Shown piece by piece: positions 19,401 to 59,443 of a stretch of 64,000 nucleotides of DNA. Every line of letters starts with the position of its first letter. The stretch's first letter is position 1. The stretch lies in the IMG/VR virus record IMGVR_UViG_3300032579_000010, positions 31,016-95,015 of that record, one strand, 5' to 3'. Below the pieces are notes generated by a model. The model saw only the letters and a program-made list of their open reading frames with translations. It made no database searches and was not told the DNA's origin. Made by a program: the position numbers and the translations under genes. This DNA is from a virus.

Positions 19401-22400
19401 AACCGTCAATGGTGTAAGTACCAAGGTCGGTGGCAGTCAGTGTGTCGGCAGCGTGGGGCCAGTCATTCGTGAGGTTGGAACCGATTGCGTATTCCCAGTC
19501 GTTGATGCTGTCATCGTCGCCTGTGGTTGCCACAACAACGGGTTCGTGGATTTGGTACTGAATGAACTCAGGCGGACCGTTGTATCCAATGTTGCCGTAA
19601 GACATCAGCAACTGACCTGCTTCACCGTAACCACCCGTGTTGGCGTTAGCGATAAAGGTAATGTGGTCAGTACCTAGAACTGCAAGAGACGAAGCGGCAC
19701 ACTGCCAAGTCGTTCCACCATTTTGGATACCGTCAGAAATCTGAACAAGTGAAGCAGCGATTTTCTCAATGCGGTCTGCGTCGTTGTCACGGCAAAGAAT
19801 CCAGTTATTGCTTTCGTCGCCTACTTGAATAACAACCCAGATACCGTTTTCAGCAGGATTGGTCTGGTCTTTTAGAAGGAGTCGGTTGTCAAGGGCGACT
19901 GTCCAGCCGTCCATCACCCACGGGCCGGTGTAAGGGAACTCAAGAGTATCAACCCAAAGTGGATAGTCATTGGTGTTGTTTCCTGCCGAAGTGTCGGCAT
20001 CGCCAATCGTGTATGTACCGGCAATGTTTTCACCAGTGGTAGCGGCGATTACTGGCTCGTGAACACCGTAAGTAACCCATTCTGGTCCGCCATTAGTAAT
20101 GTCGCCGTAAGACATAAGCAGTTGACCAGCGGTGCCTGAGTTGGCAGTCCAAGTAGCAGTTCCGTCGTCAGCACCAAAGAGGACTGCGCCAGAGGTGATA
20201 CCAAAGGCGATTGGTCCTTGGTTACCCTGCGTACCGAGTTGTCCTTGGTAGCCCTGATTTCCTTGGTACCCTTGTGCTCCTTGGAAACCTTGGTACCCCT
20301 GCGTTCCTTGCGGACCTTCGAGGCGACCAACATTTTGCCAGACGTTACCCTCATCGTTCCAGACATAGAGGTCACCAGCGACAATGTAGGAGTCGCCTTC
20401 CTCGTCTGGACCGCTTGGATATGCCGACGTAAGGGCTTCTAAGGTGTCGTATGAGCCGTCAATCATTAAAGGCGTACCAGTGGCACCCTGATAACCTTGA
20501 TAGCCCTGCGGACCGAACTGGCTGAACGGGATTGGGTCGGTACCTAGGGTGTCGGTAGCCTTTGAGCCAGATACCCATACGGTTCCACCAAGAGTGGCAC
20601 CTTGTACGACCTGAACGATTGAAGCCGCCAACTTAAAGGCGGTGTCAATGTCATTATCACGGCAAGCAGAGAAGGCGTTAGATGTACCGTCTGACAAAAC
20701 CACATAAACGCCGTTTTCGTAAGCGTTGTTCTGGTGTTTCAGTAGGAAGCGGTCACTGACTTGCAGTGTGTATCCGTCAAGTACAAGAGTTCCTGACGAG
20801 TTGAGTGCGATTACGTCAGCGTTAGTCGGAGCATCGTTCGTGGTGTTTCCACCAACCGTGTAAGTAACGTCAACGTTTTCTGTTGAGGCAACAACGACGG
20901 GTTCGTGAACGTTCAGCGAAATGTACTGAGGTGCACCATTGGTGCCAAGGTTTCCGTAAGACATTAGGAACTGTCCTGCTGTTCCATAGCCACCGGCAAC
21001 TGTAGGAATGTAAGCGAAAATAATGTCGTCGCTACCAAGAGTCATCGTTGAGGTGGCTTGACACTGCCAAGAGGTTCCACCATTAGTCGTACCCTGAACA
21101 ACTTGGATAATCGAAGCCGCTAACTTACCAATCGTGTCAATGTCATTGTCTCGGCAGGATTGGAACGGAGTGCTTGAGCCGTCGTTTAGTACGACATAAA
21201 CACCGTTTTGGTTGGCATTTTCTTCGTCCTTGACCAAGAAGCGGTCACCAACCTGAAGTTGGTATCCGTCAATAATGTATGTACCAACCGACACACCAGT
21301 CAAGGTGTCTGCGCCTACGGGCCAGTCGTTCGTGGTGTTTCCACCAACTTCGTAGTTCCACTCAATAATGTCGTCATCGCCCGTAGTAGCAACAACTACT
21401 GGCTCGTGAATCTGGTAACTAATGAACTGCGGAGCACCGTTGTAGCCAAGGTTTCCGTAGGACATAAGAAGTTGTCCAGCCTCACCGTAGTTAGCGGTGT
21501 TGGCGTTTGCGTAGAAAACAATCGGGTGAGTACCCATTGTTGCGAGGGAAGAAGTACCACACTGCCACGTCGTTCCGCCGTTTTCATTACCTTCCGATAC
21601 CTGAATAAGCGACGCACCCAACTTTTGCATGGTGTCAACGTCATTGTCACGTATAAGAAGCCAGTTGTTCTCTGAATCACCAGCGGTACCGACTACATAC
21701 ACACCGTTTGACGCTGGGTTAGTCTGGTCTTTGAGCAGAAGACGGTCATCTTCACCAACCGTCCAGCCGTCCATTACCCAAGCGCCCGTGTAGGGGAACT
21801 CGATGGTGTCTACCCACAACGGGTAGTCGTTGGTGTTGTCGCCCGATTCCGTTTCGGCGTTTCCGACGGTGTAAGTACCTTCATCTCCAATGCTTTCACC
21901 AGTCGTAGCGGCTCGCACGGGTTCGTGGATTGCGTAGTTGACAAACTCCGGTCCGCCGTTTGCGCCATCACCATAAGACATAAGCAGGGAGCCAGCCGAG
22001 CCAGAACCTGAAGTCCAAGTGGCACTACCGTCTTGCGCACCAAAAAGAACACCAGCAGGAGCAATACCAAAAGCAATCGGCCCTTGCGAACCCTGAGTAC
22101 CAAAGTATCCTTGGAAACCTTGCGGACCTTGCGGACCTTGTTCGCCCATAGGAACGAACGTCGCCCAGTAAGTGTTAAGACCAGTTACAGGGTCAGTGGT
22201 TGGTGATTCTGATGCAGGGTTGCCGTTGTAGTTAGCGAGGTACAAGCCACCTTCGTAAAGAACTACGTCAGTCGGGTTGTATGAAGTGCCAGAAACCCAA
22301 GCACCCTTGTATTGGAAGCCTGAACCTTGGTAACCTTGATTTCCCTGAAAGCCTTGGAATCCTTGGTGACCTTGCGCACCTTGATACCCTTGATTTCCTT

Positions 22401-24783
22401 GAAGTCCGAAGCGTGTCCAAATCTGGTCGGTTTCACCAAGTGAGTCGGTGGATTTGAAGTTAGTAGTCCAAACGGTTCCACCATACGCAGAGCCTTGGAA
22501 TACTTGAACGATTGAGGCGGCAATCTTGCCTGAAGTGTCTACGTCATTGTCACGAACACCAGAAAAAGCGGTTACTGAACCGTCGCTAGTGACAACGTAA
22601 ACACCGTTATAGGCGGCGTTGTCTTGACCAGCGAGAAGGATTCGGTCATCCAACTGAACGCCGTAACCGTCAATAGTGACAGTTCCTTCAGCGTTGAGAG
22701 TAATGGTGTCGGCGGCTACTGGGTAGTCGTTCGTCGTGTCGCCACCGATTGTGTACGTTACGTCAATGTTTTCAGTAGATACAACCTGTACGGGTTCGTG
22801 AACGTTTAGTTGGATGTACTGCGGAGAACCATTGGAACCAATGTCACCGTAGGACATAAGGAACTGACCGGCTTCACCATAACCACCAGCGACGGTGGGG
22901 ATGTAGGCGAAAATGATTGGGTCAGAACCAAGGTTGGAGGTAGAACTAACCTGACACTGCCAAGAGGTACCGCCGTTAGTTGCACCCTGATAGACCTGAA
23001 CAATAGACGAGGCGAGTTTTCTGATTGTGTCTACGTCATTGTCTCGACAAGCCTGAAATGCGCTGTCTGTTCCGTCGTTGATGACGACATACACACCGTT
23101 CTGCGCAGGGTCAGTTTGGTCTTTCAGCAGGAAACGGTCATCCATTTGTAGTTGGTAACCGTCAATAACAACGTTGCCAGTAGTGCTGGCGGTCATTTGG
23201 TCTACACCACGGGGCCAGTCATTTGTCGTGTTCGCACCGACGGCAAAAACCCAGTCCCAGTTTTCACCACTCGTGGCGACTTGGACGGGTTCGTGAACGT
23301 TGTACTGGACGAACTCAGGCGGACCGTTGTAGCCGATGTTTCCATACGACATCAGCAGTTGACCTGCCTCGCCATACCCGCCAGTGTTAGCGTTGGCAAC
23401 GAAAACGATTGGGTCGGTGCCAAGTTGAGAGAGTGCTGAAGCGTTGCACTGCCAAGTAGTTCCGCCGTTCTGAACACCGTCAGAGATTTGGAACAATGAA
23501 GCCGCCAACTTCTGAATCGTGTTTGTGTCATTGTCACGGACGAGGTACCAGTCGTTTCCGGCACTACCAACGGTTGCTACGAGGTAGACACCGTTCTGCG
23601 CCTTTACTGTCTGGTCTTTTACAAGGATGCGGTCATTGGCGTGAACCGTCCAACCGTCTACTACCCAGTCGCCCGTGTAGGCGAAAGTAAGGGTGTCTGA
23701 AGCCACGCCAACGTCATTGGTCGTGTCTGCGCCGACGGTGTAAGTTCCTTCAATGTTTTCACCAGTCGTGGCGGCAGTAATGAACTCGTGAATACCGAAT
23801 GTCGTCCACTCTGGTCCGCCGTTGGCGATTTCTCCGTAGGACATAAGGATTTGTCCTGAGTTTCCAGCATTGGTCGTCCAAGTTGCCGAACCATCTTCGG
23901 CACCAAAAAGAACGCCACCCGAAGTAATACCAAAAGCAACGGGGCCTTGGTTACCTTGCGTACCAAGATTTCCCTGAAATCCCTGATGACCTTGTGCACC
24001 TTGGGAACCAGTAGAGCCTTGAGCGCCCTGAAATCCTTGGTTTCCTTGGTAGCCCTGAAGTCCAGCGGTTCCCTTTTCACCTTGAGGTCCGGTAAAGCCC
24101 TGCGGACCTTGCGAGCCACTTGCGCCCTGCGGACCTTCAGCACCTTGATAGCCACTTGCGCCGTCCATACCGTTGGCACCTTGGTATCCCTGCATACCCA
24201 TAGCGCCTTGAGCGCCTTGTGGTCCGGCAGAACCCTGCGTACCAGTTAAACCTTGCGCACCCTGAGGGGCAAAAAGTGTCCACGAGTCTAAACTAACGTC
24301 AGGCTGTTGGTCAGTGTTTCCAGAAAGGGCAATGTAAGTGTTGCCACTGTATTCAACGAGGTTGTATGTCTGGTAGTCAATCGAAGGGTTCCAACCACCA
24401 GCGTAGAAAACGCCTTGACCCGGCGCCCCCTGCGGACCGGCTGGACCAGTGGTGTACAAACCAAGGTCAGTGCTGGAAATGGTGCCAAAGATTTGGGTAA
24501 TAAAGACCGAGACTGTCTTGCTTCCGTTGTCCTCGTAAGGTAAATCCGTGATTTCAGAAATCACACCAGTCATGTAGTCGGTGTTGTCTTGGTAAATCAA
24601 GACGTTCATGTTGACGGCAAAAGCATCAGCGTTTTGAGCGCCGAAGGGAATGGTCGCACCTTGAGTAACGGTGTCGCTTAGGTTGTGCCAAATAGGGGTG
24701 TAAGTACTAGCGCCTTGGGCACCTTGAGCACCGACAATCGCTGGTACCCATTCTGAGCCGTTCCAATACTTCAACTGTGCCAT
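13453..24783 (-). CDS. Giant collagen-like fibre protein (3776 aa) with 12 copies of a globular fibre domain
   Basis: Long G-X-Q tracts separating four modules, each with three HEPV..ATTG..DR(I/F)LxKDQT..NGVY..RDND domains; C-terminal trimer-type domain ending ASLTQFSV. Confidence 0.9.
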
Positions 24784-24874: not shown

Positions 24875-27800
24875 CTAGTTCACTGGCACTGCAAAACCAG
24901 AAAGCCACGTTGATGACTGGTTTGGCGTTACGTTTCCGCTTGTGTCAATCGTAACGTAGGTCATGTTGGCGGTTCCGTACTGCTGTGCAACATAAGTCGC
25001 TTGGTATGCTGGGCGGTATCCAGAAGGCAGGGTAAAGGCGGTCTGACCGGCTGTTCCACCAGAAATAGCGCCAACCATGTAAACAACGTTGTTTATCCGC
25101 CTATAGTAAACCGAGTCACCGCTGACCGCCGAGAAGCCATTGCTGAACGAAGTAACCTGAATCCAGCCCGTATCGCCCAAGGAAACGCCATTGTGCGTAC
25201 CAGCGACATTGAGGTTTCCGCTGTCGTCAAGCGAGAAAATGGTGGTGTTGTAGGCGTTATTGACGATTTCCAGCCCACCGTTATTGTTCATACGGATTGA
25301 CTTTTGAGGGTTGGAAGCACCTGAGTTTGTGTTCGTCAAGGTCATTAGACCTGCGTAGTTAGAACCACCGTGACCGTTGGATGACTGAATCGTCAGTGGG
25401 TCGGTATTGGTTGTGGTGGAAATGGCTAGGTCAAGAGGCGCTGTAGGCGTTGCACCTTGGCTTCCTTGCGAACCCTGAAAGCCTTGGGCACCCTGAGCGC
25501 CGATAGTGGCGTAGGTTAAGGCAGTTCCACTTGAGTTGACTACCAGAGCCTGACCTTGCGTACCAAGGGTCGTTAAACCAGTTCCACCGTGGGCGATTGG
25601 CAACGTGTTCACAAGGTCATCAGCGTCAGCCGACGTAATCATGTACCAGTTTCCACCATTGTAGTTAATGAACTGGTACGCTCCATTAACGGGAACTGTG
25701 TATGACGTTACGGGCGAAGAAGAGCCAATGTCGTACATAGCATTACTGGTGAATCCAAGATTGACCGTTACGGAGGCACGGTTAATAACACGCCACGTTG
25801 CGTTTGCTGTGGCTGGTGGCGCAGTAATGGTCTGACCAGAAGTTGAGCCAGTAAAGAGGGTGGCTTCGTTAACATTTGCGGTTGCTGATGATGAACGTAA
25901 GGTTACAACCTGCGAACCAGCATTTCCTTGGTAGCCCTGATACCCCTGATTTCCTTGTGTGCCTTGGCTTCCAGCGACACCTTGGTGACCCTGTGTTCCT
26001 TGGTAACCTTGCGTACCCTGAGCGCCTGTGTAACCTTGCGTTCCGTTAGCACCTTGGTTCCCTTGCGTACCAGTTGAGCCTTGTGCTCCTACAGAGCCTT
26101 GAGCGCCAGTAGCACCCTGCGCACCTTGAGCACCCTGCGCTCCGTCAGCACCGCTAGTGCCTTGGTAGCCCTGTGCTCCTTGAGAGCCAGTAGCACCCTG
26201 CGGACCAGTATCACCACGGAAACCAGTCGTTCCCTGTGCGCCCTGAACACCAGTCGGTCCTTGTGAACCTGTCGTGCCTTGTACGCCCTGTGAACCTTGT
26301 GAGCCTTGTGACCCAGTGATTCCTTGGGTTCCCTGAACCCCCTGCGTTCCTTGTACGCCTTGGGTACCCTGTGAACCTTGGTAACCTTGCGTACCTTGTA
26401 CGCCGGGGATTCCACTTAGGTTGATGTTCCAAGAACTGACGGGGTTGCTGTAGGGCGAAACCTGCGTCGCTTTCAACTCAAGGGTGCCGTCGCTTGACGT
26501 GTAGCCAATGACGGATGCGGTCATAAAGATTGTTGCGTCAGAACTGTCGCAAATGACAACCGATTCGCCGTTTGTGTATGAAAGGTTTTCACCAACCGTG
26601 ATTACAAATACGTCATTGAGCGAAATGGTCGAGAGGGTCAGCGTGTTGGTCGAAGTGGTCTGATAAACAGCACCTTGGTAGCCTTGGACACCTTGTGTTC
26701 CCTGAACGCCTTGGTAGCCTTGCGAGCCTTGATACCCCTGCGCACCTTGTACGCCCTGAACTCCTTGTGAGCCTTGGGTTCCGATTCCACCTTGGGCACC
26801 CTGAGCACCTTGTAGTGCGGTAGCAGGAGTTGTTTCGTCCAGCCAGAGAACTGATGTGTCGCTCGGCGGCACTCCGTCGTCTGAATCGTAGATACCACGG
26901 TCACCGATTTCACCTTGGTAACCTTGCGTCCCCTGATAACCCTGATAACCCTGAGGTCCAATAATGTTCGCAACGGCGACCCACACCATTGTGTTGATTT
27001 CCCAGACGTAGAGTTGCCCCTGAACAACGTATGAGTTGCTTTGGTCAACTGGTCCGGTTGGAAAGGCGGCTTCTAGGTCAGCGAGTGTGTCGTATTCACC
27101 TTGAATGTTGGTGGCTTGACCAGCCGTTCCCTGATAACCCTGATTACCTTGGTAACCCTGCGAGCCAGTAGAGCCTTGTGGTCCTTGATACCCTTGAGCA
27201 CCAGTCTGACCTTGGTTGCCTTGATAACCTTGATAGCCCTGATTTCCTTGAAATCCCTGAACACCTTGGTTGCCTTGATAACCTTGATATCCTTGATTTC
27301 CTTGAAATCCCTGAACACCTTGAGAACCTTGTACGCCTTGATTTCCCTGCGTACCTTGGAATCCTTGATTACCTTGGCTACCTGTTGCACCCTGACTTCC
27401 TTGTGAACCAGTGGTACCTTGAGCACCTTGGTACCCCTGAGCGCCCTGTGCTCCCGTCGAACCTTGCGAGCCTTGGCTACCAGTAGAACCTTGGAACCCT
27501 TGGTTGCCTTGGAACCCTTGATTTCCTTTCGAGCCTTGTACGCCTTGGCTACCCTGAGAGCCTTGCTGACCCTGATAACCCTGAAAACCCTGCGGACCAA
27601 CGGCACCGTCAAGGTTTACCGTCCAAGACGAACCCGATGGTGAACCAATAATGTCGTCAGAGGAGGCGATGTTATAAGTCAGTGAGCCAGTTGAAGGGTT
27701 GTACGAAAGAACGGTGGCGTTGAAGTAGTTGTTTGAGTCAACGGCGACAACAATCGTTTGTGGTGATGAGTAGGCAAGACCAGTGCCGACAACGAGTGAC

Positions 27801-29923
27801 GAGTTTCCAACAGTGACACTCGGAATGTTTGTTGTACTTGACGTTGAGTAAACATCACCAGCAATACCTTGATAACCCTGCGTTCCTTGATAACCCTGAT
27901 TACCTTGTGGTCCGTAACCACCTGTGGAACCAGTGACACCTTGATACCCTTGGTGACCTTGCGTACCTTGGTTTCCTTGATAGCCTTGCGGTCCTTGTGA
28001 ACCTGTAGAACCCTGTGAACCTGTAGAACCCTGCGCACCTGTCGAACCTTGGGTACCTTGATTACCTGTTACACCAATAACACCTTGGGTACCTTGGTAA
28101 CCTTGAAAACCTTGGTATCCCTGCGCACCCTGCGAGCCAGTTGCACCAGTTGAGCCTTGTACACCTTGGGTACCTTGTACGCCCTGTGTTCCTTGATAGC
28201 CCTGAAAACCTTGATTTCCTTGCGAACCTGTAGCACCAGTTGTTCCTTGTGCACCTGTTACACCCTGACTACCTTGGTAGCCTTGAGCACCTTGCGACCC
28301 AGTAGCGCCTTGAACGCCTTGCGAACCAGTCGAACCTTGACTTCCCTGTACGCCTGTGGCACCTTGTGAACCCGTGGAACCTTGGTATCCCTGTACGCCT
28401 TGATTCCCCTGAGTGCCTTGTGCGCCAGTTAGACCCTGAACACCTTGATTGCCTTGAACACCTTGTGTGCCTTGGTATCCCTGCGGCCCGGTAGCACCAG
28501 TAGCGCCCTGATTTCCTTGGGTACCTTGGTAACCAGTTGAACCCTGCGGTCCGGTAGCACCTTGGCTACCTTGTGAGCCTTGAACACCAGTTTGTCCTTG
28601 CGCACCAGTTTGTCCTTGGTACCCTTGGTTGCCTTGTGCCCCAGTGGAACCCTGAGCGCCTGTTACGCCTTGAGCACCTGTGGCTCCTTGGACACCCTGA
28701 TTACCTTGCGGTCCAGTTGAGCCTGTTGTTCCTTGATAGCCTTGTGCGCCCTGCTGTCCGGTGTCACCCTTGACACCTTGATAGCCCTGAAATCCCTGCG
28801 TACCTTGCAGACCAGTTGCACCTTGAACACCCTGCGCACCAGTGACACCGATTACACCTTGAGTACCTTGTGGCCCTTGCGCTCCTGTAACACCAGTCGC
28901 ACCTTGGTAACCTTGCGCTCCTGTAACACCAGTTACACCTTGATAGCCTTGGCTACCTTGTACACCTTGTAAGCCTTGAGAACCAGTTGAACCTTGAGCA
29001 CCCTGTGGTCCGGTAGCACCCGTTAGACCAGTCGTGCCTTGCGTTCCTTGCGGACCAGTTGCTCCCGTCGAGCCTTGGTAACCCTGATTTCCTTGGGAAC
29101 CAGTGGCACCTGTAGAGCCTTGTACGCCCTGCGTACCTTGATACCCTTGGCTTCCCTGAGCGCCTGTACTTCCTTGCGCTCCTGTACTTCCCTGAGCACC
29201 CGTTACACCTTGGTAACCCTGATGACCCTGCGTTCCTTGCGCACCCGTGCTTCCCGTAGCGCCTTGTGCGCCAGTAACACCTTGCGGACCTTGTGTGCCC
29301 TGCGCACCAGTGGCTCCTGTACTACCTGTAGCGCCTTGCGAACCCTGTTGTCCAGTTGCGCCCGTCGAACCTTGAGTGCCTTGCACTCCTTGGCTACCTT
29401 GAGCACCTTGAACACCCTGATACCCACGAGCACCTGCGGCACTCCAAGCCAACGAGCCGTCTGACTGTATGGTGAGGACTTCGCCCTGCGTACCGACACC
29501 GAGACGAGATAGTTCGTTTTCACCACTACCGACGAGTAAGTCGCCAGATGCTTGGATTTGTCCAATGGTATTGGCAACCGCTTTGTTGGCTTCAGCAAAG
29601 TCAATGGCAGTCGAAACTGGTGCGACAACGGCGTTGACGGGGTGGGTAAGGGCAAGTGTGCCGTCAGCACCACGTTGAACGCCAGTGAGGGTAACGGTGA
29701 GGGCTGTCCAGTTGTATGAACCAGCCGGTACATAAATCTTTTCCTCGTTTTCAGTACCAATACTGATGTCAAGGAAGAAGCCACCGCCTACGCCCAGCCC
29801 AGCCCAGCCACCAGTGGTGTTGGTGAGGACTACTGTGGTCGAGGTGTTGTCAAGGGCGTCATACAGAAATGCGTTTGGTGCGGCACCAACGTAACTATTC
29901 TGTGTGTAAGAAGCCCTTGCCAT
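24875..29923 (-). CDS. Collagen-like fibre protein (1682 aa)
   Basis: N-terminal anchor domain shared with 33043..37215; several hundred G-X-Q triplets; C-terminal DTGW...YRRINNVVY...FTLPSGYRP receptor-binding-type domain. Confidence 0.9.
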
Positions 29924-47754: not shown

Positions 47755-50700
47755 TTAGGCTGTTTCGCCTGATGAGGCTTTATTTTTGAGGTTTTCCTTC
47801 CCCATAACCAGCCATAAGAAATCGTCAGGCTCGGAACTGTCCACGTCGTGCCAGTTGCCGTCAGTGTCCATCCACTTGTCACCCTGAATCCACTGCGGAC
47901 CAAACATACCGTCAGCCCAGTAGCCGTCGGTAACGTTCTTTGGTGCTTCGTCTTGAGCCTTACTCATAAACCCTAGTTTAGCAGACTTAGTAACCTTTGT
48001 CCAACCTAGTGCTTCGGCAATGTTGGTAACCAAAGGCGTGTCAGGAACGAGTGGTGATTGGAAGGCGGCGTAGGACTCGGCAACAGTCTCCTGAAGGGTC
48101 GTCGAGCCGTATCTAGTGCTACCCAAAGAGTTAATGACACTCTGGGTAGAGGGAAGTAATGGGGTGTTTCCCCAGCCTTTACTAGATAGATACGAAGGAA
48201 GGTCGGCTCTAAGAATGTTTCCATCAGGCGTTGACATTCCGTAAGGAACATTTCTGCTGACGTAAAGTTTTATAGAAGAGTCTGTGACCTTATTCCAGTC
48301 TGGTGTTGTCACACCTAGTTCTTGACCTGTCTTGTCGAGGGCGGAATAAATCTGGTCAATGTGGTCTCCAGCAGCAAAGAAGTTGGAGTGACCTAGTTCG
48401 TGGATAACCGTGGACGCAATGCTTTGTTCGGGGTTGGCAATGAGGTCAGAAACCGACCATTCCTTTTGTAGGTCGCCTTCGGTCAAGTCCTTTTGGGTGC
48501 CGTCAGGGAAACCCTGCGACATATTGTTGGTAAAGAAATCTCTTACTTCGTCCGAAGCATTTTGCATACCTGCGATTTCACCAGAACGCCAGTAAACATC
48601 GCTAGCGACGGTAGACCATTTGCCCATTTGGATTGTGTTGGGGTTGGCAGGATTGACCCAAGCGCCAGTTGAGCGGTCAGCATCGTTGGCATGGGTGAAG
48701 TCAAGAGTCTTACCTTCACCGTACTTGTCAATAGCGTTCATAGCGGCTGTAGAAAGTCGTTCACCGGGTGCCCAACCTCGTGCACCCTTGGCGAAAATGA
48801 CGGTGTTGGTTCCCTTTGTGAAGTAAATCTTTCCACCAGACTCGCTCTTAGACCAGCCCTTTGGAACGGGTGCCTTCATGCGAGGCAAGGTCTTACGGGC
48901 TAACAGTGTTTTGGCTTCTTTGTAGCCTTCGCTCGTCCCCTTCCACGTTGCGTTGGAGTTTGGTACGCCACCGATTCCACCAGTCCATTGGTTTCCGTGG
49001 AACGAGTGACCAGAAACATCGCCTTTTGCTACGGGTTTTTCAGCATCAGCCTTGAACTGCAAGTCCATTGCTCGGTAGTACAACTCGGAAGCCTTGTCCT
49101 CGTCTCCTGCGAGTCGTGCTTCCTTGCTGGCTTGTCGCAGTTCCTCAGCCTTTTCAGCATTGGACTTCTCTGACTTTTCCTTTTTTGCTACGTCGAGGAC
49201 TGCTTTGATAACGGCAGTAACTAGTTCTACGGAGTTTTTCACCACAGACTTATTGACACCTGCGGAAGCAATAAGGGTATTGGCGTAGTCTTTTGCCTCA
49301 GCGTCAGTACAGGTGGCGATAGAGCCGAACTTGCTGATTAACTCAGGCGTGGCTGAGACAACTTGCCAGTATTTCGTAAGACTAAATGAGTGGGAGTCTG
49401 AGTAGTCCTTTAGTTCCTGAAGGGTTTGTTCGCCGTTTGCGTCAACGAACTTGTCATCACCGATTTGGAGTGCGTAGTGCTGAACAAAAACGGGTGGATA
49501 GTTCTTACCTTCTTCAGGAGTTATGGGGTCGCCAAGGGCGACAGGCTTACCGTTGGGGTAGATGTTCTGTAGAGCCTTCATAACCACGCCACAACCACCG
49601 AACAGTGGGCTGTTGTTGGGATAGCCAAGATACCCCTGCTTTGTCATAATCCTATTGAACGCATTAATGCTCTCAGACGACATAAAGGCGGATTTCACCT
49701 GTTCGCCTGTAAGCAATGCGCCTTCTGCCGAGCCGTTACCGCCTGTCCACTGATTGCCGTGGAACTCATGTCCTGCCACGTCACCCTTTTTCACCTCTTG
49801 GCTATTGAAGTGGGCGACCATTTTTTTTGCCCACGAGTAGCCAGCATCGCCACCCCAAGCGTCCCAAGCGACACGACCCGGCGACGGGTAACCGTTTTCA
49901 CCAGAACTAAAGCCTTCTGCCTTCTTGTCTGGTTGGTGGCGGTCAAAGTACGCCTTCATACGACGCAGCGTGTCCTCTGAGACACTGTGAGCGCTGGCTA
50001 GGTCGCTGGCTCGCTTGCGTCCAACGGCGGTGAATCCGTCTCCTGCCTTGCCGTCCTTTATCCAGTCCAGCGCACGTTGAGCGGCTTGTTGGACACCCTG
50101 CGGTGGTGTGAATGATTCTGAACTCTTAGCAACGTCTGAGACAGATTTCACTACTGAGGCAACCGAGTCAAGCGCACGGAACGCCTCAATCAACCTGTCA
50201 AGATTGTCAATGAGGTTTTGGAACTTGTCGTCCATTCCCAACTGGGCAAAGTGTGGTTCGAGGGTCGCCAGTTTGGGCTTCATAATCAGCAAAGCCTCTA
50301 GCGTCAAACCACGGTTCCAAAGGTATGCAATGAAGTCTGGCTGTGGCACTCGTGGGCGGAAGTTGCAAAGAGCGTGGTCAATACCGACAATGCGGTTTTC
50401 ACCTGTGTAAATCAAGTTCTTGGGTCGGCGGTCAGCGTTGGCTACGAGGTAGTCAAAAAGACGCAGATTGTCTCCCTGAGCCGTTTCTGGGTAGTATTCC
50501 TCGATTCCCAGTTCCTCGCCTGTCTTGCCCTCAATGAAGGGCATAATGACCGTTTTAGCCCCGTCTGAGGTGAATAGGCAGTCACGGATAGGTGCGTTAA
50601 TAACTTCGCCTACACGGGCAGACAGGTACTCCTGAGCGGAAAGTAGCGGAGCAGGATACAACCTGTGGGTTTTATTTCCGACCCAATCCTTCAGTTCCTT

Positions 50701-50835
50701 TTGGATTCCACCACTACCGTCGGCAAATGTGACAAAAGTGAAGCCGTTGTTTTGGTTTCCCTTGAACTTGCCGTCGAGTAGGTTGCGCTCAACAATGTCA
50801 ATGTTGGTGAAGGTGACAAAGTTGGGTTGGAACAT
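47755..50835 (-). CDS. Polyvalent head-associated protein: PI3/4K/HipA-like kinase + phage head domain + papain-like domain + zincin metallopeptidase
   Basis: FDYLVANADRRPKN...GIDHAL; GRVAWDAWGGDAG; GGCG...QHY...FVDANG; VIHELGH...RYG...ETVAESY; two KGDVxGHxFHGNQW tags. Confidence 0.75.
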   Translation of the reverse strand: MFQPNFVTFTNIDIVERNLLDGKFKGNQNNGFTFVTFADGSGGIQKELKDWVGNKTHRLYPAPLLSAQEYLSARVGEVINAPIRDCLFTSDGAKTVIMPFIEGKTGEELGIEEYYPETAQGDNLRLFDYLVANADRRPKNLIYTGENRIVGIDHALCNFRPRVPQPDFIAYLWNRGLTLEALLIMKPKLATLEPHFAQLGMDDKFQNLIDNLDRLIEAFRALDSVASVVKSVSDVAKSSESFTPPQGVQQAAQRALDWIKDGKAGDGFTAVGRKRASDLASAHSVSEDTLRRMKAYFDRHQPDKKAEGFSSGENGYPSPGRVAWDAWGGDAGYSWAKKMVAHFNSQEVKKGDVAGHEFHGNQWTGGNGSAEGALLTGEQVKSAFMSSESINAFNRIMTKQGYLGYPNNSPLFGGCGVVMKALQNIYPNGKPVALGDPITPEEGKNYPPVFVQHYALQIGDDKFVDANGEQTLQELKDYSDSHSFSLTKYWQVVSATPELISKFGSIATCTDAEAKDYANTLIASAGVNKSVVKNSVELVTAVIKAVLDVAKKEKSEKSNAEKAEELRQASKEARLAGDEDKASELYYRAMDLQFKADAEKPVAKGDVSGHSFHGNQWTGGIGGVPNSNATWKGTSEGYKEAKTLLARKTLPRMKAPVPKGWSKSESGGKIYFTKGTNTVIFAKGARGWAPGERLSTAAMNAIDKYGEGKTLDFTHANDADRSTGAWVNPANPNTIQMGKWSTVASDVYWRSGEIAGMQNASDEVRDFFTNNMSQGFPDGTQKDLTEGDLQKEWSVSDLIANPEQSIASTVIHELGHSNFFAAGDHIDQIYSALDKTGQELGVTTPDWNKVTDSSIKLYVSRNVPYGMSTPDGNILRADLPSYLSSKGWGNTPLLPSTQSVINSLGSTRYGSTTLQETVAESYAAFQSPLVPDTPLVTNIAEALGWTKVTKSAKLGFMSKAQDEAPKNVTDGYWADGMFGPQWIQGDKWMDTDGNWHDVDSSEPDDFLWLVMGKENLKNKASSGETA

Positions 50836-50872
50836 AGGGCATCCTCTCTGAAACCCAAGCCTACTTTAGGAT

Positions 50873-50962
50873 TTAAGCCTTTTGGATTTCGCCAGAAGCG
50901 TGTCCAGCAGGTTCTCCTGTTGCATCAATGTGACGTAGTTGGCAGAAGCCCTCTGGGTTGTC
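50873..50962 (-). pseudogene. Orphan duplicate of an internal segment of the upstream gene
   Basis: Reads DNPEGFCQLRHIDATGEPAGHASGEIQKA*, 26/28 aa identical to 51345-51428; has no start codon. Confidence 0.8.
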
Positions 50963-51597
50963 AAAGCGGAACCCCAGCAGCAACCCGTGAGGCGGCTGAA
51001 GCCGTGCTTGCGTTTGCGGCTATGTTGGTTCGGTTTCCCGAACGGGCGAAATCCCCTGCTTGCTTTGAGGCACTATCATGCGCCAACGCTGCTTGGAAAT
51101 GAAGTTGGCTTACCAATCCGTTTGTTTTATCCGCCAAATCAAAGTGCGCCCTTGCAAGTTCAGCGTGTTTACTGGCTATGTCTTGCAAGTTGTGTACTTT
51201 ATTGGGGTCTGCGTCAGGCGTATTTTGGACTTTTGACGCAAAGTTAGCAAGGTCTTTTGCTTTGGAAGCAACGTCTTTGGCTTGTTCGTAATCTTCTTGT
51301 TTGGCGTACTGGTTTCCCCGAAATGGGTGACCTGAAAAGTCGCCCTTAGCGATTTCACCACTTGCCTTGCCTGCAGGCTCACCCGTAGCGTCAATGTGGC
51401 GGAGTTGGCAGAACCCTTCTGGGTTGTCTATGTGCTTTCCAGCAATGGCAACACAAGCGTCAAAGTCACCGGGGCTACCCCAGTCAATCTGACCGTCAGC
51501 GCCGTTGTTGTACCAGTCAATCAAGCCTTGGGCATTTCCCGCCTTGTGGATTTCCACCTCACGGGCGTACTTGACCCAAGACAGAATGTCAGACATG
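50961..51597 (-). CDS. Head-associated cargo protein (WGSPGDF..C domain + tag + His/Ala helical domain)
   Basis: Likely start MSDILSW; IDWGSPGDFDACV...PEGFCQLRH; IAKGDFSGHPFRGNQY. Confidence 0.7.
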
Positions 51598-51606
51598 ACG
51601 AACCGA

Positions 51607-52818
51607 CTAGCCGTTAGCAACCATTGGGCTTTGTAGTGCGTCAGCCTGAGCGTTTAGGCGACCAGCGTAAGCACGTTGAACTGCGGCAAGTCCACGTTGT
51701 TCTGAACGTGCATCATCATCGCCAGTTTCCTTTGCGTGGAGTCCAGCAATACCTTCGTGGCTTCCTGCGGCTTGCATACGCAACTTCGCAGCAGTACGGA
51801 GTTCTTCCGCAGCCTTTTCAGTACGACCTACAGCGAGGTGTCCCTGAGCAAGTGCTTCGTGAGCATCTGCGGCAGACTTCGAGGCTTCAGCAGACTTGGC
51901 GTAACGAGACATTGTTTGCTTCCAACCTTCACGAATACCTAGGCGTGGGAAGTTACGAGCACCACCAGTCCATTGGTTGCCGTTGAATGAGTGTCCGGGT
52001 TGAGCACCTGAACCAGCACCGCCCTTGGCGATGTAGTCCTGATAAGCCTCTGACTTTTGGAAGTCCTTAGTAAGAAGTTCGTCTGTGTCAAATGGGTTGT
52101 TTTCAGCACTCTTGCTCAAAGCACCAATAAATACTGCGAGTGGGATAAATCCAGTTCCACATCCGTCACAACCTTCGCCCATGCAAGCAGGGCAGGTTAC
52201 GTCTGGGTTTTCTGGGTAGTCCGATGAGTCATCGTCGTCTGAACTGTCGTCAGGTTGACCGCTAGCGTCAAGCATTACAGCAGGGCCGTCAGAAAAAGAC
52301 TTGGTGAGCGAGAAGTCAGGAACCATAACACCATTTTGGTTCATAATCAACTTAGGAGCAACCTCAACTACGTCATCTTCCTTTTCGGTTTCTTGGTCTT
52401 CAGGCTGGTCTGGACCGTCCTGAACCATTTGACCGTAGCGGTTAGGGATTTCACCCTTAGCCACAGCACGGATACCCTCAAGAGCAGACTTAGCAAGGTC
52501 GAGTTGCTCGTTAGCCTCAGTCGAAGCCTTGTCAGCGTCACGGAAACCAGCGAGAGCGTTGTTGTAAGCCTTGCGCAGTTCCTCACGGTTCCACGACGAC
52601 TTGGCTACAGAATCGAAGTAAGCGATTTCAGTAGCCTTGAGGGTGGCGGTTGCCTTCTCAAGACGGAAGTTGGCGTTATCCACTGCGGACAAAGCCACTA
52701 CCTCAGCCTGTGCGGCCTTAAGGATTTGCTCGCCAGCAACACGCTGGGCGTTCTTCTCGTCAATGCCCTTTTGTACAAACGCAAGGGTGCTGGGAGTTGT
52801 GGTCGTGGTTTTAATCAT
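51607..52818 (-). CDS. Head-associated cargo protein (coiled coil, CxxC Zn site, tag, His/Ala domain)
   Basis: Many hydrophobic-x-K-[SAG] sites; CPACMGEGCDGC; IAKGGAGSGAQPGHSFNGNQW. Confidence 0.7.
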   Translation of the reverse strand: MIKTTTTTPSTLAFVQKGIDEKNAQRVAGEQILKAAQAEVVALSAVDNANFRLEKATATLKATEIAYFDSVAKSSWNREELRKAYNNALAGFRDADKASTEANEQLDLAKSALEGIRAVAKGEIPNRYGQMVQDGPDQPEDQETEKEDDVVEVAPKLIMNQNGVMVPDFSLTKSFSDGPAVMLDASGQPDDSSDDDDSSDYPENPDVTCPACMGEGCDGCGTGFIPLAVFIGALSKSAENNPFDTDELLTKDFQKSEAYQDYIAKGGAGSGAQPGHSFNGNQWTGGARNFPRLGIREGWKQTMSRYAKSAEASKSAADAHEALAQGHLAVGRTEKAAEELRTAAKLRMQAAGSHEGIAGLHAKETGDDDARSEQRGLAAVQRAYAGRLNAQADALQSPMVANG

Positions 52819-52897: not shown

Positions 52898-53362
52898 TTA
52901 AAACTTTGCGTGAAGTGGGTGACTTTCATCAAGCCCATTGTCGTTGCGAGCACTCACACCGTTAGGTACAAATAGTGGGTGGCTTGGGTCAAGACTGTTC
53001 ATAGACTTTTCCACCTCGTCAGACTCAACCTCAACCTCAGGCTCAACCTCAGGCTCAACCTCGACTTCGGCAGACTTCTTAATCCACTGCTCAGGAATCA
53101 TGTCCTCGGCACCGAGAGCCTTGGCTTGCTCGATAATGTGAGCGTGAACAGCGTCTTGGTCTTTGGCACGACCAGCCGACTGAATAGCGTTGGCGAGGTC
53201 TTCCTTGTTAGCAATCGGGAAAGAACCGTCAGGCATAGCCTTGCCCTTTTCAGCAAGTGCTTGGCGCTCGTCTTGCGAAACTTCACGCTTCGAGACAACC
53301 TTGTGACCAAGTGACTTGGCTACCCACTCTGCGATTTCTGCGTCTGTGATTTGTTCTGACAT
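52898..53362 (-). CDS. Head-associated protein with PDGSFPI domain
   Basis: DAEIAEW leader; ERQALAEKGKAMPDGSFPIANKEDLANAIQSAGRA...HII..AKALG..IPEQW. Confidence 0.7.
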   Translation of the reverse strand: MSEQITDAEIAEWVAKSLGHKVVSKREVSQDERQALAEKGKAMPDGSFPIANKEDLANAIQSAGRAKDQDAVHAHIIEQAKALGAEDMIPEQWIKKSAEVEVEPEVEPEVEVESDEVEKSMNSLDPSHPLFVPNGVSARNDNGLDESHPLHAKF

Positions 53363-54611: not shown

Positions 54612-55046
54612 TTAGCCCCTTGCGGCTCGGCTCATAGCATCGGCTGTTTTTGATGCGTCAGAGGCGTTAATAAGAGAATCTTGTAGGTTGCTGTTTGCTT
54701 CGTTGTACATATCACGCATTTCTGGCGTTGCGTCTGTTGCGCCAGCCATTCCAGCAGCGTCTTCGACGTTTTCCTTGGCTTCCTTAGCGTCTTGGTAAGC
54801 CTTTACAGCGTTGATGTGAGCCGTGACTGCCTTGTCGTTCAAAAGAGCAGTCTTTGTGTCGCCTAGGGCATCTGCCTTGTCACGAGCGATTGAGTGCGCC
54901 GTTGCTTGTCCGAGGTGATAAGAAATAGCCTCGTTAATGGCACCCCCAACGCCAGCGCCCCATTGGTTGCCATGAAAAGCGTGTCCAGCAACGTCGCCCT
55001 TGGCAAAACGTACCCAGTTAATGATTTCAGCGTTGAGTTCAGTCAT
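54612..55046 (-). CDS. Tagged cargo protein
   Basis: NAEIINW leader; FAKGDVAGHAFHGNQW. Confidence 0.7.
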   Translation of the reverse strand: MTELNAEIINWVRFAKGDVAGHAFHGNQWGAGVGGAINEAISYHLGQATAHSIARDKADALGDTKTALLNDKAVTAHINAVKAYQDAKEAKENVEDAAGMAGATDATPEMRDMYNEANSNLQDSLINASDASKTADAMSRAARG

Positions 55047-55049
55047 TAT

Positions 55050-55532: not shown

Positions 55533-55579
55533 TGTTATTCCTTTAGGCGAGTTGATTATTTCAGCATCTATGTCAGTCA

Positions 55580-56077
55580 TTAGCGATACTCATCGAATGG
55601 TGCTAGCAAAGAAGTTTTAAGATTGGCATTTACAGTTGCGTTAAATGCTTTTGAGGTAGCGTCTGACGCTGACCTTGCCTCTGGTTGGTTTGCCGAGTAT
55701 GGCTCTGCATCGTATTGCGCATTTTTAGCACCTAAGTGCGCCTCTGCTGCGTCAAGGTGCGCCTGATATGCGTCACCTGCTCTACCCCATCTTTGTGGTG
55801 GGATTTGACCACTTTGAACGGCATCTAGAATGTCTCTTGCAAGTTGAACGTGACCACTAGCAATAGTCCCGTGTTGGAAAGCCATTGCACTTCCGTTTTC
55901 ACCACGGTTTGAACGATTAACAACAGACCTAGAAGCAGTAGTAAGTGCCTTTGACTGCCCTACGGCTGTTGTTGCTTGCCATTGGTTGCCGTGAAAGGCG
56001 TGACCTACGACATCCCCTTTAAGGATTTCACTAGCCTTAGACCAGTTTGGAACGAGGTCGTTTGTATTGAATGACAT
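55580..56077 (-). CDS. Tagged cargo protein
   Basis: FNTNDLVPNW leader; ILKGDVVGHAFHGNQW. Confidence 0.7.
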   Translation of the reverse strand: MSFNTNDLVPNWSKASEILKGDVVGHAFHGNQWQATTAVGQSKALTTASRSVVNRSNRGENGSAMAFQHGTIASGHVQLARDILDAVQSGQIPPQRWGRAGDAYQAHLDAAEAHLGAKNAQYDAEPYSANQPEARSASDATSKAFNATVNANLKTSLLAPFDEYR

Positions 56078-56088
56078 AGTTGCTCTCC

Positions 56089-57609
56089 TTAGCGGTTTGG
56101 GAAGGTTGCTGGGTTGTCGTATTCGGTAGGAAGGTCAACTTCTACGCCAGCGCCGGTGCCACCGATTGAGTAGCCACGGATTTCGCCCTTCTTGACAAGT
56201 TCCCAAGCCCAAGGTTCCCATTGCACACCAAGGAATACGGTGCCAGCAGGGAACTGTTGCTTTGTGATTTCACCAGTGTCGGCTTTCATCATTGGAACTT
56301 CGACTTCGTGGGGCCACGTCAGTGCCTCAACCCACTTACCAGCCACAATGTTTACGTTGTGCTGAAGGCGAATGTCACGGTCACCGTTTTCTACATAACC
56401 CCAAAGAGCCTTTTGTAGTTCTTCTGGGTCTGTCCATTCGCCATGTGCGTCTGCACGGTTTGGAACGTACCAAGGACCAAGGGTGTAGCGAAGTTCTGCG
56501 TTTTTCTTGATTTGGTTAGGGATTTCAGTAATAACTTCTTTGCTCTTTTGCATCAAGTTTGCGTCTTGTACAACTTGTGGGTTCACAACGTCGTCAGACA
56601 GAACAGTCATGTTCTCAGGAACAAACTTAGGCTTGCGACGGCGTGAGCCGACCATTGTGCCAACGGCATCAACGTGAACTTCACTTACGCCCGGACCTTC
56701 TTTTTCCACCACAGTCTCGGCGGTGCGAGTCTTGGCTTCCTTGTACATTTCGTTGGCTTCGCCAGCGGCACGGATAAGGACGGGGACAATGTTGAACTTG
56801 CACCAGCCGTTAGGTGATACCTGCGTGGCAACCCAGTCGCAAGTGCCATTCATGTAGGCAATGCAACCAGAGCAGTTTCCAGCATCGCCAAAGGGCGAGT
56901 TGTCAGTGTATGAAGCGTCAGTCGTAGGGAAACGACCAATGTTGTCAACTACTGCGTCAATGCTTTCAGCAAGTTCGACTTGCCAAGGGTCAAGACCGTC
57001 CTTCCAGTGGTCGCCAAGGTCGCTGTCAAGAGCGGCGCTTGAGGAACTGGAACTGCTGGACGAGGACGAACTGCTGGACGAGGACGAACTGCTGGACGAG
57101 GACGAGGAACTGTCGTCGCTACTGTCCTTGTCATCAACGATTTCCACCACGGCAGGCGTACTCGACGTACTTGAACTGTCGCTTGACGACGAAGACGAGG
57201 AACTGCTTGAGTCGGAACTTGAGGAACTGCTCGAACTTTCGTCCTCACGGCTTTGCTGAACCGCCTGAAGGATAGCGGCGACGGTAGCAGGGTCTAGTTG
57301 TACCTGAACGGTGCCCATAGTTGAGTCGTCGCTGTCGTCAGAACTGTCGTCAGAACTGTCGTCCTGTGGCTCAATGGGAGCGGCGTTGAACGTGAATGGG
57401 AATCCAATCGCCTTGTTTTTTTCACCAACGGGGGCGAGAATAAGTGAGGATTCGCCTGCCTTCTCAACGGCAATCAGGTCGGCAGAAGCGTAGCCCTCGG
57501 TCAAAAGGTCGGCGGCTGACTTACGGAGTTCGTTGTCTAGGTGCTCGCTTACAATGATTTCAGTAAGTGATACGTCCTTGACAACATCGAGGATATTTAG
57601 TTCGTCCAT
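56089..57609 (-). CDS. Prohead maturation protease, XkdF-like, with long Ser/Asp-rich N-terminal region
   Basis: RYTLGPWYVP..DAHGEW...IRLQH...GTVFLGV..W..VKKGEIRGYSIGG; follows portal; CSGC...C...GWC motif. Confidence 0.85.
   Translation of the reverse strand: MDELNILDVVKDVSLTEIIVSEHLDNELRKSAADLLTEGYASADLIAVEKAGESSLILAPVGEKNKAIGFPFTFNAAPIEPQDDSSDDSSDDSDDSTMGTVQVQLDPATVAAILQAVQQSREDESSSSSSSSDSSSSSSSSSSDSSSTSSTPAVVEIVDDKDSSDDSSSSSSSSSSSSSSSSSSSSSSSSSAALDSDLGDHWKDGLDPWQVELAESIDAVVDNIGRFPTTDASYTDNSPFGDAGNCSGCIAYMNGTCDWVATQVSPNGWCKFNIVPVLIRAAGEANEMYKEAKTRTAETVVEKEGPGVSEVHVDAVGTMVGSRRRKPKFVPENMTVLSDDVVNPQVVQDANLMQKSKEVITEIPNQIKKNAELRYTLGPWYVPNRADAHGEWTDPEELQKALWGYVENGDRDIRLQHNVNIVAGKWVEALTWPHEVEVPMMKADTGEITKQQFPAGTVFLGVQWEPWAWELVKKGEIRGYSIGGTGAGVEVDLPTEYDNPATFPNR
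57040..57112. repeat. 18-bp tandem repeat encoding poly-Ser
   Basis: (gaactgctggacgaggac) x3. Confidence 0.85.
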
Positions 57610-57674: not shown

Positions 57675-57788
57675 TTAGCGGAAGTGGCGGCGTGTTGGGG
57701 CAACGCCCTTAAACGGCACCGAACGAGCCTTTATGGTCGTCTGCTTTTTTTTTCCAGCAGAGTTAGTCGGCTTTATTCGGATTTTCAC
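57675..57788 (-). CDS. 37 aa very basic microprotein (below cutoff)
   Basis: GTGA overlap with portal stop; MKIRIKPTNSAGKKKQTTIKARSVPFKGVAPTRRHFR*. Confidence 0.45.
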   Translation of the reverse strand: MKIRIKPTNSAGKKKQTTIKARSVPFKGVAPTRRHFR

Positions 57789-59443
57789 GAAGTTGAGCCT
57801 TGGTTGTTAATAAGTGGGCTATTTGTAACTGGTCCGTTCTGACCTGTGGTGTTTCCCGTAGCGCCCTTGCCTGACGGCGGTGTTTGTCCAGTTTGACCGG
57901 GGTAGCCCTGACTCGAAATGTCAGCCATGATGCCACTGCCACCGCTTTGGTCGTTCTTTCCACCTTGGGGGTTTTGTACGCCACTAGGAGTTGTGTTGGG
58001 CTGTGCCGAAGCACCAGTTACCGCCGAGTTTGCGGCAATAAAGTTCTTTTTGTTGTCGTGGGTTTGCTCGGTCTGACCCGGCTGAGTCATGTTTTCACCA
58101 TAACGAGAGTTGTCGGCAACACCGTTGGCTTCTGGTCTGAAGGCTGGCAATCCAGCCAGTTCACGCAGGAAGTCCTCAAGGTTGTTGTCAGGCGTAAGAA
58201 GTTGCGACTGAGAAAGGTTGGTGAGGAACGTACCAAGTTCCACCAAGTCCACCGCAGAAACCTGACCATATGCCAGTTGGGGCATACGGGAAGTGTCAAA
58301 GCCGTTCAGCGACATTAGGCGTGGCAATGCGTGGCTGTTGAATACCTCACAAATCAGGCGAATCCAAGATTCCACTGCGGCGATAAACAAGTCCACCTTG
58401 GAAGCGCCCAAAGCGAAGGAACCGACGGATTCGTGACCCAACATAATGAAGTCAGCCAGAACCGTCATGGCAATCTGCTGGTTGTAGCGAGTAATGATTT
58501 GGTCAGTGTTGAACTGACGAGCACCGCCAGAGTTCATCAACTTAAAGTCCACTAACTGCTTGCCGTTCTCGTCAAACATCATTGGCAAGATAATGCCTTC
58601 GGCTTCGTTGCGCTTTACGCCTCGTACAATGCGTTCCATAGCGCCCAATGACGCTTTTTCACTAGGTGTGGCAGAGGCACTCATCCACTCGGCAGGAACG
58701 TAACCAACGGGCAGTCCAGCCAAGTCACGCTCAACGCCGACTGCCTCAAACTCTTCGATACGGCGCTTGTAGTACCACGACTTAAACGAGTTACGTAGGA
58801 CTGAGCGACCTTCTGGGTTTCCACGAGCGGTGGTGGTGCGGAACAGCAAAGCCTTTTCGATTGGGATAACGTTCAGGCGACCCGTCGTTGGGTCACGTTG
58901 AATCATTGCCTTGATTCCACCACTCTCGTCAAACTGCCACTGCCACAGACTGTCCTGTGCTCGCATAGCAATCTTGCGCCAGCCGACCTTGTTGTCGCTG
59001 AACTTGGAGCGCATTGACGGGTCTTTTTGTTCCGGTCCCTTGCGTTGCTTGTAGACAATCTCAAAGAAAGACCAGCCGTAAGGTAGAAAACTGAGGATAG
59101 CAATCATCAGTTCGTGCCACGAGTGGCTCATGTCGTCCATACATTCTTGGACAAAGGCGGCGACGGCACGGTCATTGTCCGTTGGCGTTTCACCAGTCTG
59201 GTCGTCGTAAGGGTCTACTCGCCAGTCCACCTGAAGGATTACACGTTCGATAGCAAAGAGGATTGACCCAATAATCGGGTCGTTTTCACTCATGTCACGG
59301 TAAGCGGTTAGTGCTTGTCGTCCTCGAAGTTGAGGCAGGATGTCGTCAATGACGAATCCACCCGTGCGCCAAAGACCCGTAGCACCCAGTTCTGAGAAGT
59401 TATCTACAGGTTGTAGAGGTATTTGTTCCTCGTTATCTGGCAT
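57785..59443 (-). CDS. Portal protein (Mu gp29/DUF935-like)
   Basis: ELGATG, YRDMSENDP, YGWSFFEIVY, GNPEGRSVLR, VERDLAGLP, GSFALG motifs. Confidence 0.9.
   Translation of the reverse strand: MPDNEEQIPLQPVDNFSELGATGLWRTGGFVIDDILPQLRGRQALTAYRDMSENDPIIGSILFAIERVILQVDWRVDPYDDQTGETPTDNDRAVAAFVQECMDDMSHSWHELMIAILSFLPYGWSFFEIVYKQRKGPEQKDPSMRSKFSDNKVGWRKIAMRAQDSLWQWQFDESGGIKAMIQRDPTTGRLNVIPIEKALLFRTTTARGNPEGRSVLRNSFKSWYYKRRIEEFEAVGVERDLAGLPVGYVPAEWMSASATPSEKASLGAMERIVRGVKRNEAEGIILPMMFDENGKQLVDFKLMNSGGARQFNTDQIITRYNQQIAMTVLADFIMLGHESVGSFALGASKVDLFIAAVESWIRLICEVFNSHALPRLMSLNGFDTSRMPQLAYGQVSAVDLVELGTFLTNLSQSQLLTPDNNLEDFLRELAGLPAFRPEANGVADNSRYGENMTQPGQTEQTHDNKKNFIAANSAVTGASAQPNTTPSGVQNPQGGKNDQSGGSGIMADISSQGYPGQTGQTPPSGKGATGNTTGQNGPVTNSPLINNQGSTS

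Follow-up and report, generated by a model that had tools for sequence, protein, structure and literature searches.

How does a phage gene come to be followed, immediately behind its own stop codon, by a displaced copy of the end of its conserved part? The question is raised by a gene of an uncultured phage, represented by a 95-kb linear, metagenome-derived IMG/VR virus record that is estimated to be 74% complete and from which we analysed a stretch of 64,000 nucleotides (the window). All genes of the window lie on the minus strand. Pfam identifies among them a Mu-type portal (57785-59443), an XkdF-type S78 head protease (56089-57609), an E-type major capsid protein and a DNA methylase. The interval between protease and capsid is occupied by a row of small genes and by a 1026-aa multi-module protein, which share the short peptide G-H-x-F-x-G-N-Q-(W/Y), and the gene discussed here sits between the head protease and this 1026-aa polyvalent protein. 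Its distant homologues are found only in phages of Gordonia, Mycobacterium, Microbacterium, Arthrobacter and Brevibacterium, so the host is probably an actinobacterium. Pfam gives no match above cut-off for the gene or its neighbours and no MuF domain in them, and a blastn search of the region against 50,697 phage records returned no match. Two large open reading frames of 3776 and 1682 aa are also carried by the minus strand downstream of the head genes (13453-24783 and 24875-29923).

The live gene is listed as a frame of 219 aa at 50961-51620, read from a TTG, and consists of three parts: a conserved module, a 13-residue tag and a helical payload of 114 aa. The listed TTG at 51620 overlaps the end of the upstream gene, and the ATG at 51596 (211 aa) is probably the true start, since the relatives begin at the methionine of M-S-D-I-L-S-W. 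From the start of the gene onwards the locus reads as follows, L001 and L009 being the relatives that represent its two putative parental forms and L035 a metagenome contig similar to L001.

51345-51620, minus strand: conserved module, aa 1-92 of the 219-aa frame, supported by phrog_6439, the family alignment and the structural model.
51450-51543, minus strand: stretch of the live gene with recipient-type, L009-like sequence; all 17 informative sites agree with L009 against L001.
51345-51428, minus strand: live copy of the repeated segment, that is, the last helix of the module and the linker up to its Lys; donor-type, mostly L001-like.
50989-51359, minus strand: core near-identical to L001 and L035 (358/360 over the middle 360 nt), a patch that appears to have been exchanged recently.
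51306-51344, minus strand: linker/tag G-D-F-S-G-H-P-F-R-G-N-Q-Y; the tag is also repeated in neighbouring genes.
50964-51305, minus strand: helical payload of 114 aa ending in A-A-G-V-P-L, modelled as a helical hairpin and known from the L001-like cluster.
50960-50966, minus strand: joint and stop, CTT TGA C; the last bases of the cassette, CCG CTT T, abut GAC, the first codon of the orphan.
50873-50962, minus strand: orphan of 29 codons and TAA, in the +1 frame relative to the live gene, probably the stranded 3' end of an L009-like short allele.
50836-50872, minus strand: spacer with the ribosome-binding site of the next gene, resembling the spacer behind the short gene of L009.
47755-50835, minus strand: next gene, the 1026-aa polyvalent protein with kinase-like, phrog_2859 and zincin-like modules and two tags; an 81% identical homologue lies on the L009 contig.

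The module matches the phrog_6439 profile (E 3.1e-9, aa 25-89 against profile positions 10-78 of 82) and is modelled by AlphaFold as a small helical domain with pLDDT 70-82, whereas the tag is probably disordered, as its low pLDDT suggests. Repeats of the tag among the neighbouring genes were recovered as D1-D4 in a direct-repeat search of the window, and in an exhaustive HMMER search it gave many multi-copy matches in giant proteins. The payload is without a Pfam match above cut-off. A Foldseek comparison with viral models produced nothing beyond weak local resemblance to small actinophage proteins and to proteins of capsid maturation or morphogenesis. Among 1.84e9 representatives searched with HMMER the payload is known only from the L001-like cluster, to which a metagenome scan adds three contigs, all of the in-frame L001 type. 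Of the other matches to tag and payload, all but one are confined to the tag end of the query or fall below 1e-8, giant proteins predominating among them; the remaining one is a match of 46% to residues 1200-1307 of a 1511-aa protein.

Behind this gene the orphan repeats the last 28 residues of the module. The preliminary description had matched the two segments at 26 of 28 amino acids with many synonymous changes, and coordinates, translations, alignment and codon table all agree with it: 64 of 84 bases are identical over the 28 aligned codons, 15 codons differ synonymously only and two non-synonymously (K/H and A/Q). The same pair emerged independently from the direct-repeat search as an 85-nt repeat (D5) of 76% identity, in which the longest exact match is 11 nt. 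When the phage's own record was searched at the protein level, the module came up exactly twice, as the full copy at E 2.9e-63 and as the orphan at E 6.3e-14, a result that excludes chance resemblance. The copies are spaced 466 nt apart, or 3x155+1, which places the orphan in the +1 frame. The translations bear out that the live copy runs on into tag and payload while the orphan stops just after the Lys site, and that at the junction CTT TGA C the live frame ends (50960-50966) with GAC as orphan codon 1.

Could the orphan be a gene in its own right? All it encodes is the last helix of a small helical domain together with the linker, and one of the two invariant cysteines is missing, so it cannot fold alone. 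It is out of frame, with no credible start or ribosome-binding site; a start of its own at TTG 50983 was considered and rejected, being inside the payload gene and lacking a ribosome-binding site. A search of the coding strand around the orphan found no promoter or terminator, and the next gene begins 37 nt past it. No conserved position of the orphan carries a damaging change, and none of roughly 33 non-synonymous sites in its conserved codons has changed, which bounds its later divergence only below roughly 9%. Its undamaged state fits a young scar and fits selection equally well, and is uninformative between the two.

The nature of the repeat becomes clearer when the whole family is considered. 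The module is present in 30 viral loci and in dozens of database proteins, and the alignment consists of about 70 strongly conserved residues, with W, Y, two C, R, H and D invariant, followed by a G-E-x-x-K linker beyond which divergence is complete. Some alleles stop at or just after the G-E linker (L009 with 86 aa, L020, P0019-P0024 and P0033-P0035), and the neighbours of the module in the Atlas are clusters of viral and actinobacterial proteins of 69-92 aa; others continue into DUF5872, into the tag with payloads of various kinds, or into tails that reach about 720 residues. The variation of the payload at this site, anticipated in the preliminary description, is plain from these continuations beyond the linker. 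Short alleles without payload, anticipated there as well, do exist, but the exact ending G-E-I-Q-K-A-stop, sought as a degenerate pattern, had no match in viral contigs. P0031 (114 aa) equals P0003 (196 aa) minus residues 104-184, missing in frame directly after the G-H-x-F-H of the tag, and reads as a natural payload-deletion variant in another lineage. Among the 37 related loci compared, a second copy of the segment occurs only in the window.

In three relatives (L028, L029 and L030) the module lies inside proteins of 526-1023 aa with 239-720 residues ahead of it, which makes it a shuffled bead of polyvalent proteins that is not always N-terminal. Another shuffled module is the block G-K-A-M-P-D-G-S-(F/Y)-P-I ... 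A-K-A-L-G, which forms a stand-alone gene of 154 aa at 52898-53362 of the window, lies inside a 514-aa protein of L001 (2424-3968) and stands N-terminal to the phrog_6439 module in P0019-P0021. Literature searches on the letters of the tag and on DUF5872 returned nothing relevant.

Two kinds of relatives account for the two halves of the locus. The first comprises L001, whose protein is 93% identical, and the metagenome contigs L035-L037; in these, module, tag and payload are followed in frame by I-S-K and DUF5872. Similarity between the window and L001/L035 changes sharply along the gene: the upstream flank is unrelated, the module is about 88% identical, the core, which begins at the G-E-I-A-K codons and ends 25 nt short of the stop, is identical at 358 of 360 positions, the last ~30 nt of the payload fall to about 79%, and beyond CCG(C/A)TTT there is no homology, so that resemblance to the L001-like genes ends at the joint. 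Such a near-identical core amid different flanks in another phage indicates exchange by recombination. The I-S-K behind the payload of the L001-like genes (L001:4354-5187, L035-L037) resembles a three-residue echo of the G-E-I-(A/S)-K linker, which suggests that the L001-like cassette itself entered a module-DUF5872 gene at its linker.

The second kind is represented by L009, which has the same upstream gene (3' end about 98% identical), then the 86-aa short allele and, beyond two extra genes, the 81% homologue of the 1026-aa gene. No relative with exactly the ending of the orphan directly before the 1026-aa gene was found among those compared. The orphan is 82% identical to the L009, L001, L002 and L004 alleles as against 76% to the live copy, and it has a perfect 42-nt run in common with the 3' end of the L009 short allele. 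Where L009 and L001 differ, informative sites assign 51450-51543 of the live gene to the L009 type (17/17), the middle portion of this tract being identical to L009 at 59 of 60 positions, and the sequence from 51435 to the L001 type, so that the L009-like tract ends 7-22 nt before the start of the repeat. The orphan is L009-like at 50906-50924 (8/8), with a short L001-like patch at 50894-50902, and the spacer behind it shares CCTAAAGTA..TTGG with L009 and is L009-like at all seven informative sites of 50863-50870. Joined together, the L009-like part of the live gene and the orphan form a continuous short allele. Besides these tracts the mosaicism extends to a fine scale, as in the L001-like beginning of the live gene and in unique patches, which indicates that these alleles recombine often.

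We observe, then, a repeat with a frame offset, both parental forms in relatives (the short allele in L009 and L020, the cassette allele in L001, L035, L036 and L037) and the points at which similarity switches, abruptly in the case of the joint, where L001-like identity stops at CCG(C/A)TTT and L009-like sequence resumes in the orphan. These observations are best accommodated, and with good confidence, by a donor patch that entered an L009-like short gene through a homologous crossover on the left and left it through an illegitimate joint on the right, the orphan being a recombination scar without a function of its own. The core amid foreign flanks, together with the match of orphan and spacer to the L009 short allele, upholds the earlier proposal that tag and payload were added by recombination with a related phage.

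By what steps might the scar have arisen? We infer the following order of events. The ancestor would have resembled L009 in having a short (~90 aa) stand-alone phrog_6439 gene, which a brief spacer separated from the next gene of the head region. Part of an L001-like gene from a related phage would then have been copied in as a patch extending from about the donor's D-N-P-E-G-F codons, via the tag and the helical payload, to G-V-P-L. The preliminary description had spoken of a cassette of tag and payload; these were inserted, but with them the patch would also have brought last helix and linker in the form that they had in the donor, and this would be why the two copies differ at synonymous sites. 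The left end would be a homologous crossover, lying as it does within the conserved sequence of the module. The right end, CCG CTT T | GAC AAC CC, would have been joined nearly where the patch had entered the recipient, and would be illegitimate, the microhomology there being at most 2-4 nt. A double crossover might have produced this outcome, as might a template switch returning close to its point of departure. Either would displace the last 29 codons of the recipient, its stop and its spacer 466 nt downstream and out of frame, and the cassette frame would run straight into the TGA contained in T+GAC. Homogenisation of the cassette's middle with L001-like phages would have come later or simultaneously. 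The mainly synonymous differences between the copies would reflect their descent from two lineages that each kept the protein, rather than selection on the orphan. Dating of the event from the 358/360 core was considered and rejected, since the last ~30 nt of the payload are far more diverged (~79%); the joint is undatable from the core, and the orphan may be long-lived.

A junction between two strains can also be an artefact. An assembly chimera of two co-occurring strains would be compatible with a metagenome-derived, linear record of 74% completeness and with the circulation of both parental forms in similar freshwater samples, but we consider it extremely unlikely: there is no shared k-mer at the joint to mislead an assembler, the two copies having no exact match beyond 11 nt, and the joint lies away from any repeat boundary. 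A subtler error, or a recent frameshift mutation, would be an extra T in a true CTT GAC, in which case the second segment is or recently was in frame and the payload is an internal insert within the module. Dropping one T of the TTT does yield the in-frame fusion V-P-L-D-N-P, and the intact orphan and the metagenomic assembly of the record could be counted on the same side. We nevertheless regard this as very unlikely, because the TTT is shared with the donor (CCG ATT T in L001-like genes), which places the joint after it and requires no insertion, because a run of three T is short for a homopolymer error, and because the relatives examined do not include an in-frame internal-insert form.

The heptamer at the joint raises the question of whether the orphan is translated after all. 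CTT TGA C at 50960-50966 on the minus strand is identical to CUU UGA C of the autoregulatory +1 site of prfB (RF2), with the downstream frame likewise +1, and in E. coli UGA followed by C is a weak stop, as in prfB. A programmed slip from CUU to UUU would append the 29-residue orphan and yield a form of 248 aa in which the last helix of the module and its Lys site recur at the end; its product would read V-P-L-D-N-P-E-G-F, in which L-D-N-P-E-G-F is the natural context in many alleles, and the undamaged orphan could again be counted in its favour. The surroundings of the heptamer are nevertheless unlike those of prfB: the only SD-like run is GGGG and ends 5 nt before CUU instead of at the 3-nt spacing of a proper Shine-Dalgarno sequence, the site lies at a recombination joint, and it is not conserved. 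The arrangement is missing from all 37 related loci and an in-frame second segment from every relative, and the exact 21-nt junction pattern had no match in viral contigs. The heptamer is common in the window and not over-represented there, with 17 copies against 12.2 expected; the caution of the preliminary description that the motif may be due to chance is justified. At a +1 joint, moreover, T+GAC produces TGA-C of itself, the L001-like genes have CCG ATT T in the corresponding position so that CTT-T is cassette sequence, the appended piece would be only part of a domain, and RF2 frameshifting cannot be assumed in the probable actinobacterial host. Programmed frameshifting is accordingly quite unlikely, and CTT TGA C is probably a by-product of the joint, given that no relative shares the heptamer and that the SD-like run is weak and misplaced.

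Another way for the orphan to matter would be as DNA, if it were maintained as a substrate with which the population flips between short form and payload form, as in Rhs/CdiA loci. The preliminary description held that recombination between the copies would excise the cassette, and this is logically correct, since any crossover within the 84-nt repeat would restore an intact gene of ~93 aa; members of the family differ in whether they have the payload, tags are shared among the neighbouring genes as well, and there is a second small repeat close by. Copies of 76% identity whose longest exact match is 11 nt are however a poor recombination substrate, the arrangement is unique to the window genome among the loci examined, and no alternative payload stands behind the orphan, all of which renders a maintained switch highly improbable. 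Taking the two routes together, we think it unlikely that the orphan is anything but dead, whether appended through an RF2-style +1 shift or kept as a handle for payload swapping. Were it so, the locus would provide two forms of a capsid-carried protein, or tagged head-cargo genes would swap payloads as polymorphic toxin loci do. For the recombination scar, which we prefer, we infer no function.

The closest precedent for such a scar is found in phage mosaicism. The illegitimate-recombination model for the mosaic joints of tailed phages is reportedly that of Hendrix and Hatfull. The 'novel joints' of tailed phages are described in mycobacteriophage comparisons (PMC3029335) and in the work on Phamerator (PMC3233612). 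The window shares with them an abrupt switch between two relatives, a joint free of homology, both parental modules extant, and homologous exchange within a conserved flank; it differs in that surviving joints usually lie at gene boundaries, whereas here the joint is inside a gene and out of frame, with a displaced fragment of 29 codons still legible. On this comparison the putative scar is ordinary phage mosaicism, unusual only as an intragenic event whose displaced end can be read.

The resemblance to polymorphic toxin loci noted in the preliminary description holds for the conserved region with variable C-termini, but it does not extend to an alternative payload or immunity gene behind the orphan, and it remains an analogy. 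As in the orphan C-terminal modules of Rhs and CdiA (PMC3967940), a conserved part precedes variable C-terminal payloads, the incoming module brings a conserved piece, and the old end is displaced downstream, where it keeps potentially recombinogenic homology. Unlike in those systems, the orphan of the window is a conserved fragment and a stop, with neither an alternative toxin nor an immunity gene, the surroundings of the locus are phage head genes instead of a secretion locus, and the payload has no known toxin activity. Phage polyvalent proteins (PMC5512222) and MuF polymorphic toxins (PMC5576092) are closer in setting, being head-associated, with shuffled modules and variable C-termini behind a conserved part, and the next gene of the window is itself a multi-module protein of 1026 aa with a zincin-like motif. 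The locus differs from MuF toxins (PMC5576092) in that no MuF domain was found and its module is phrog_6439, a family without an assigned function; the G-H-x-F-x-G-N-Q tag is mentioned in neither PMC5512222 nor PMC5576092.

While the scar in itself leaves known phage biology unchanged, it would be an unusually legible case of domain-level shuffling in phage head-accessory genes, in which recipient, donor, entry and illegitimate exit can be read from extant relatives. The near-identical core within different flanks suggests that tag and payload travel between phages as one unit, for which the small conserved module and its Lys-linker would act as a homologous landing pad, and it supports the idea that modules behind the G-H-x-F-x-G-N-Q tag are exchangeable. 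A smaller direct repeat of 33 nt (D19; 55016-55048 and 55550-55582, 79% identity, spacing 534 nt) spans the beginnings of two neighbouring tagged genes and may be a second recombination scar, in this case in frame.
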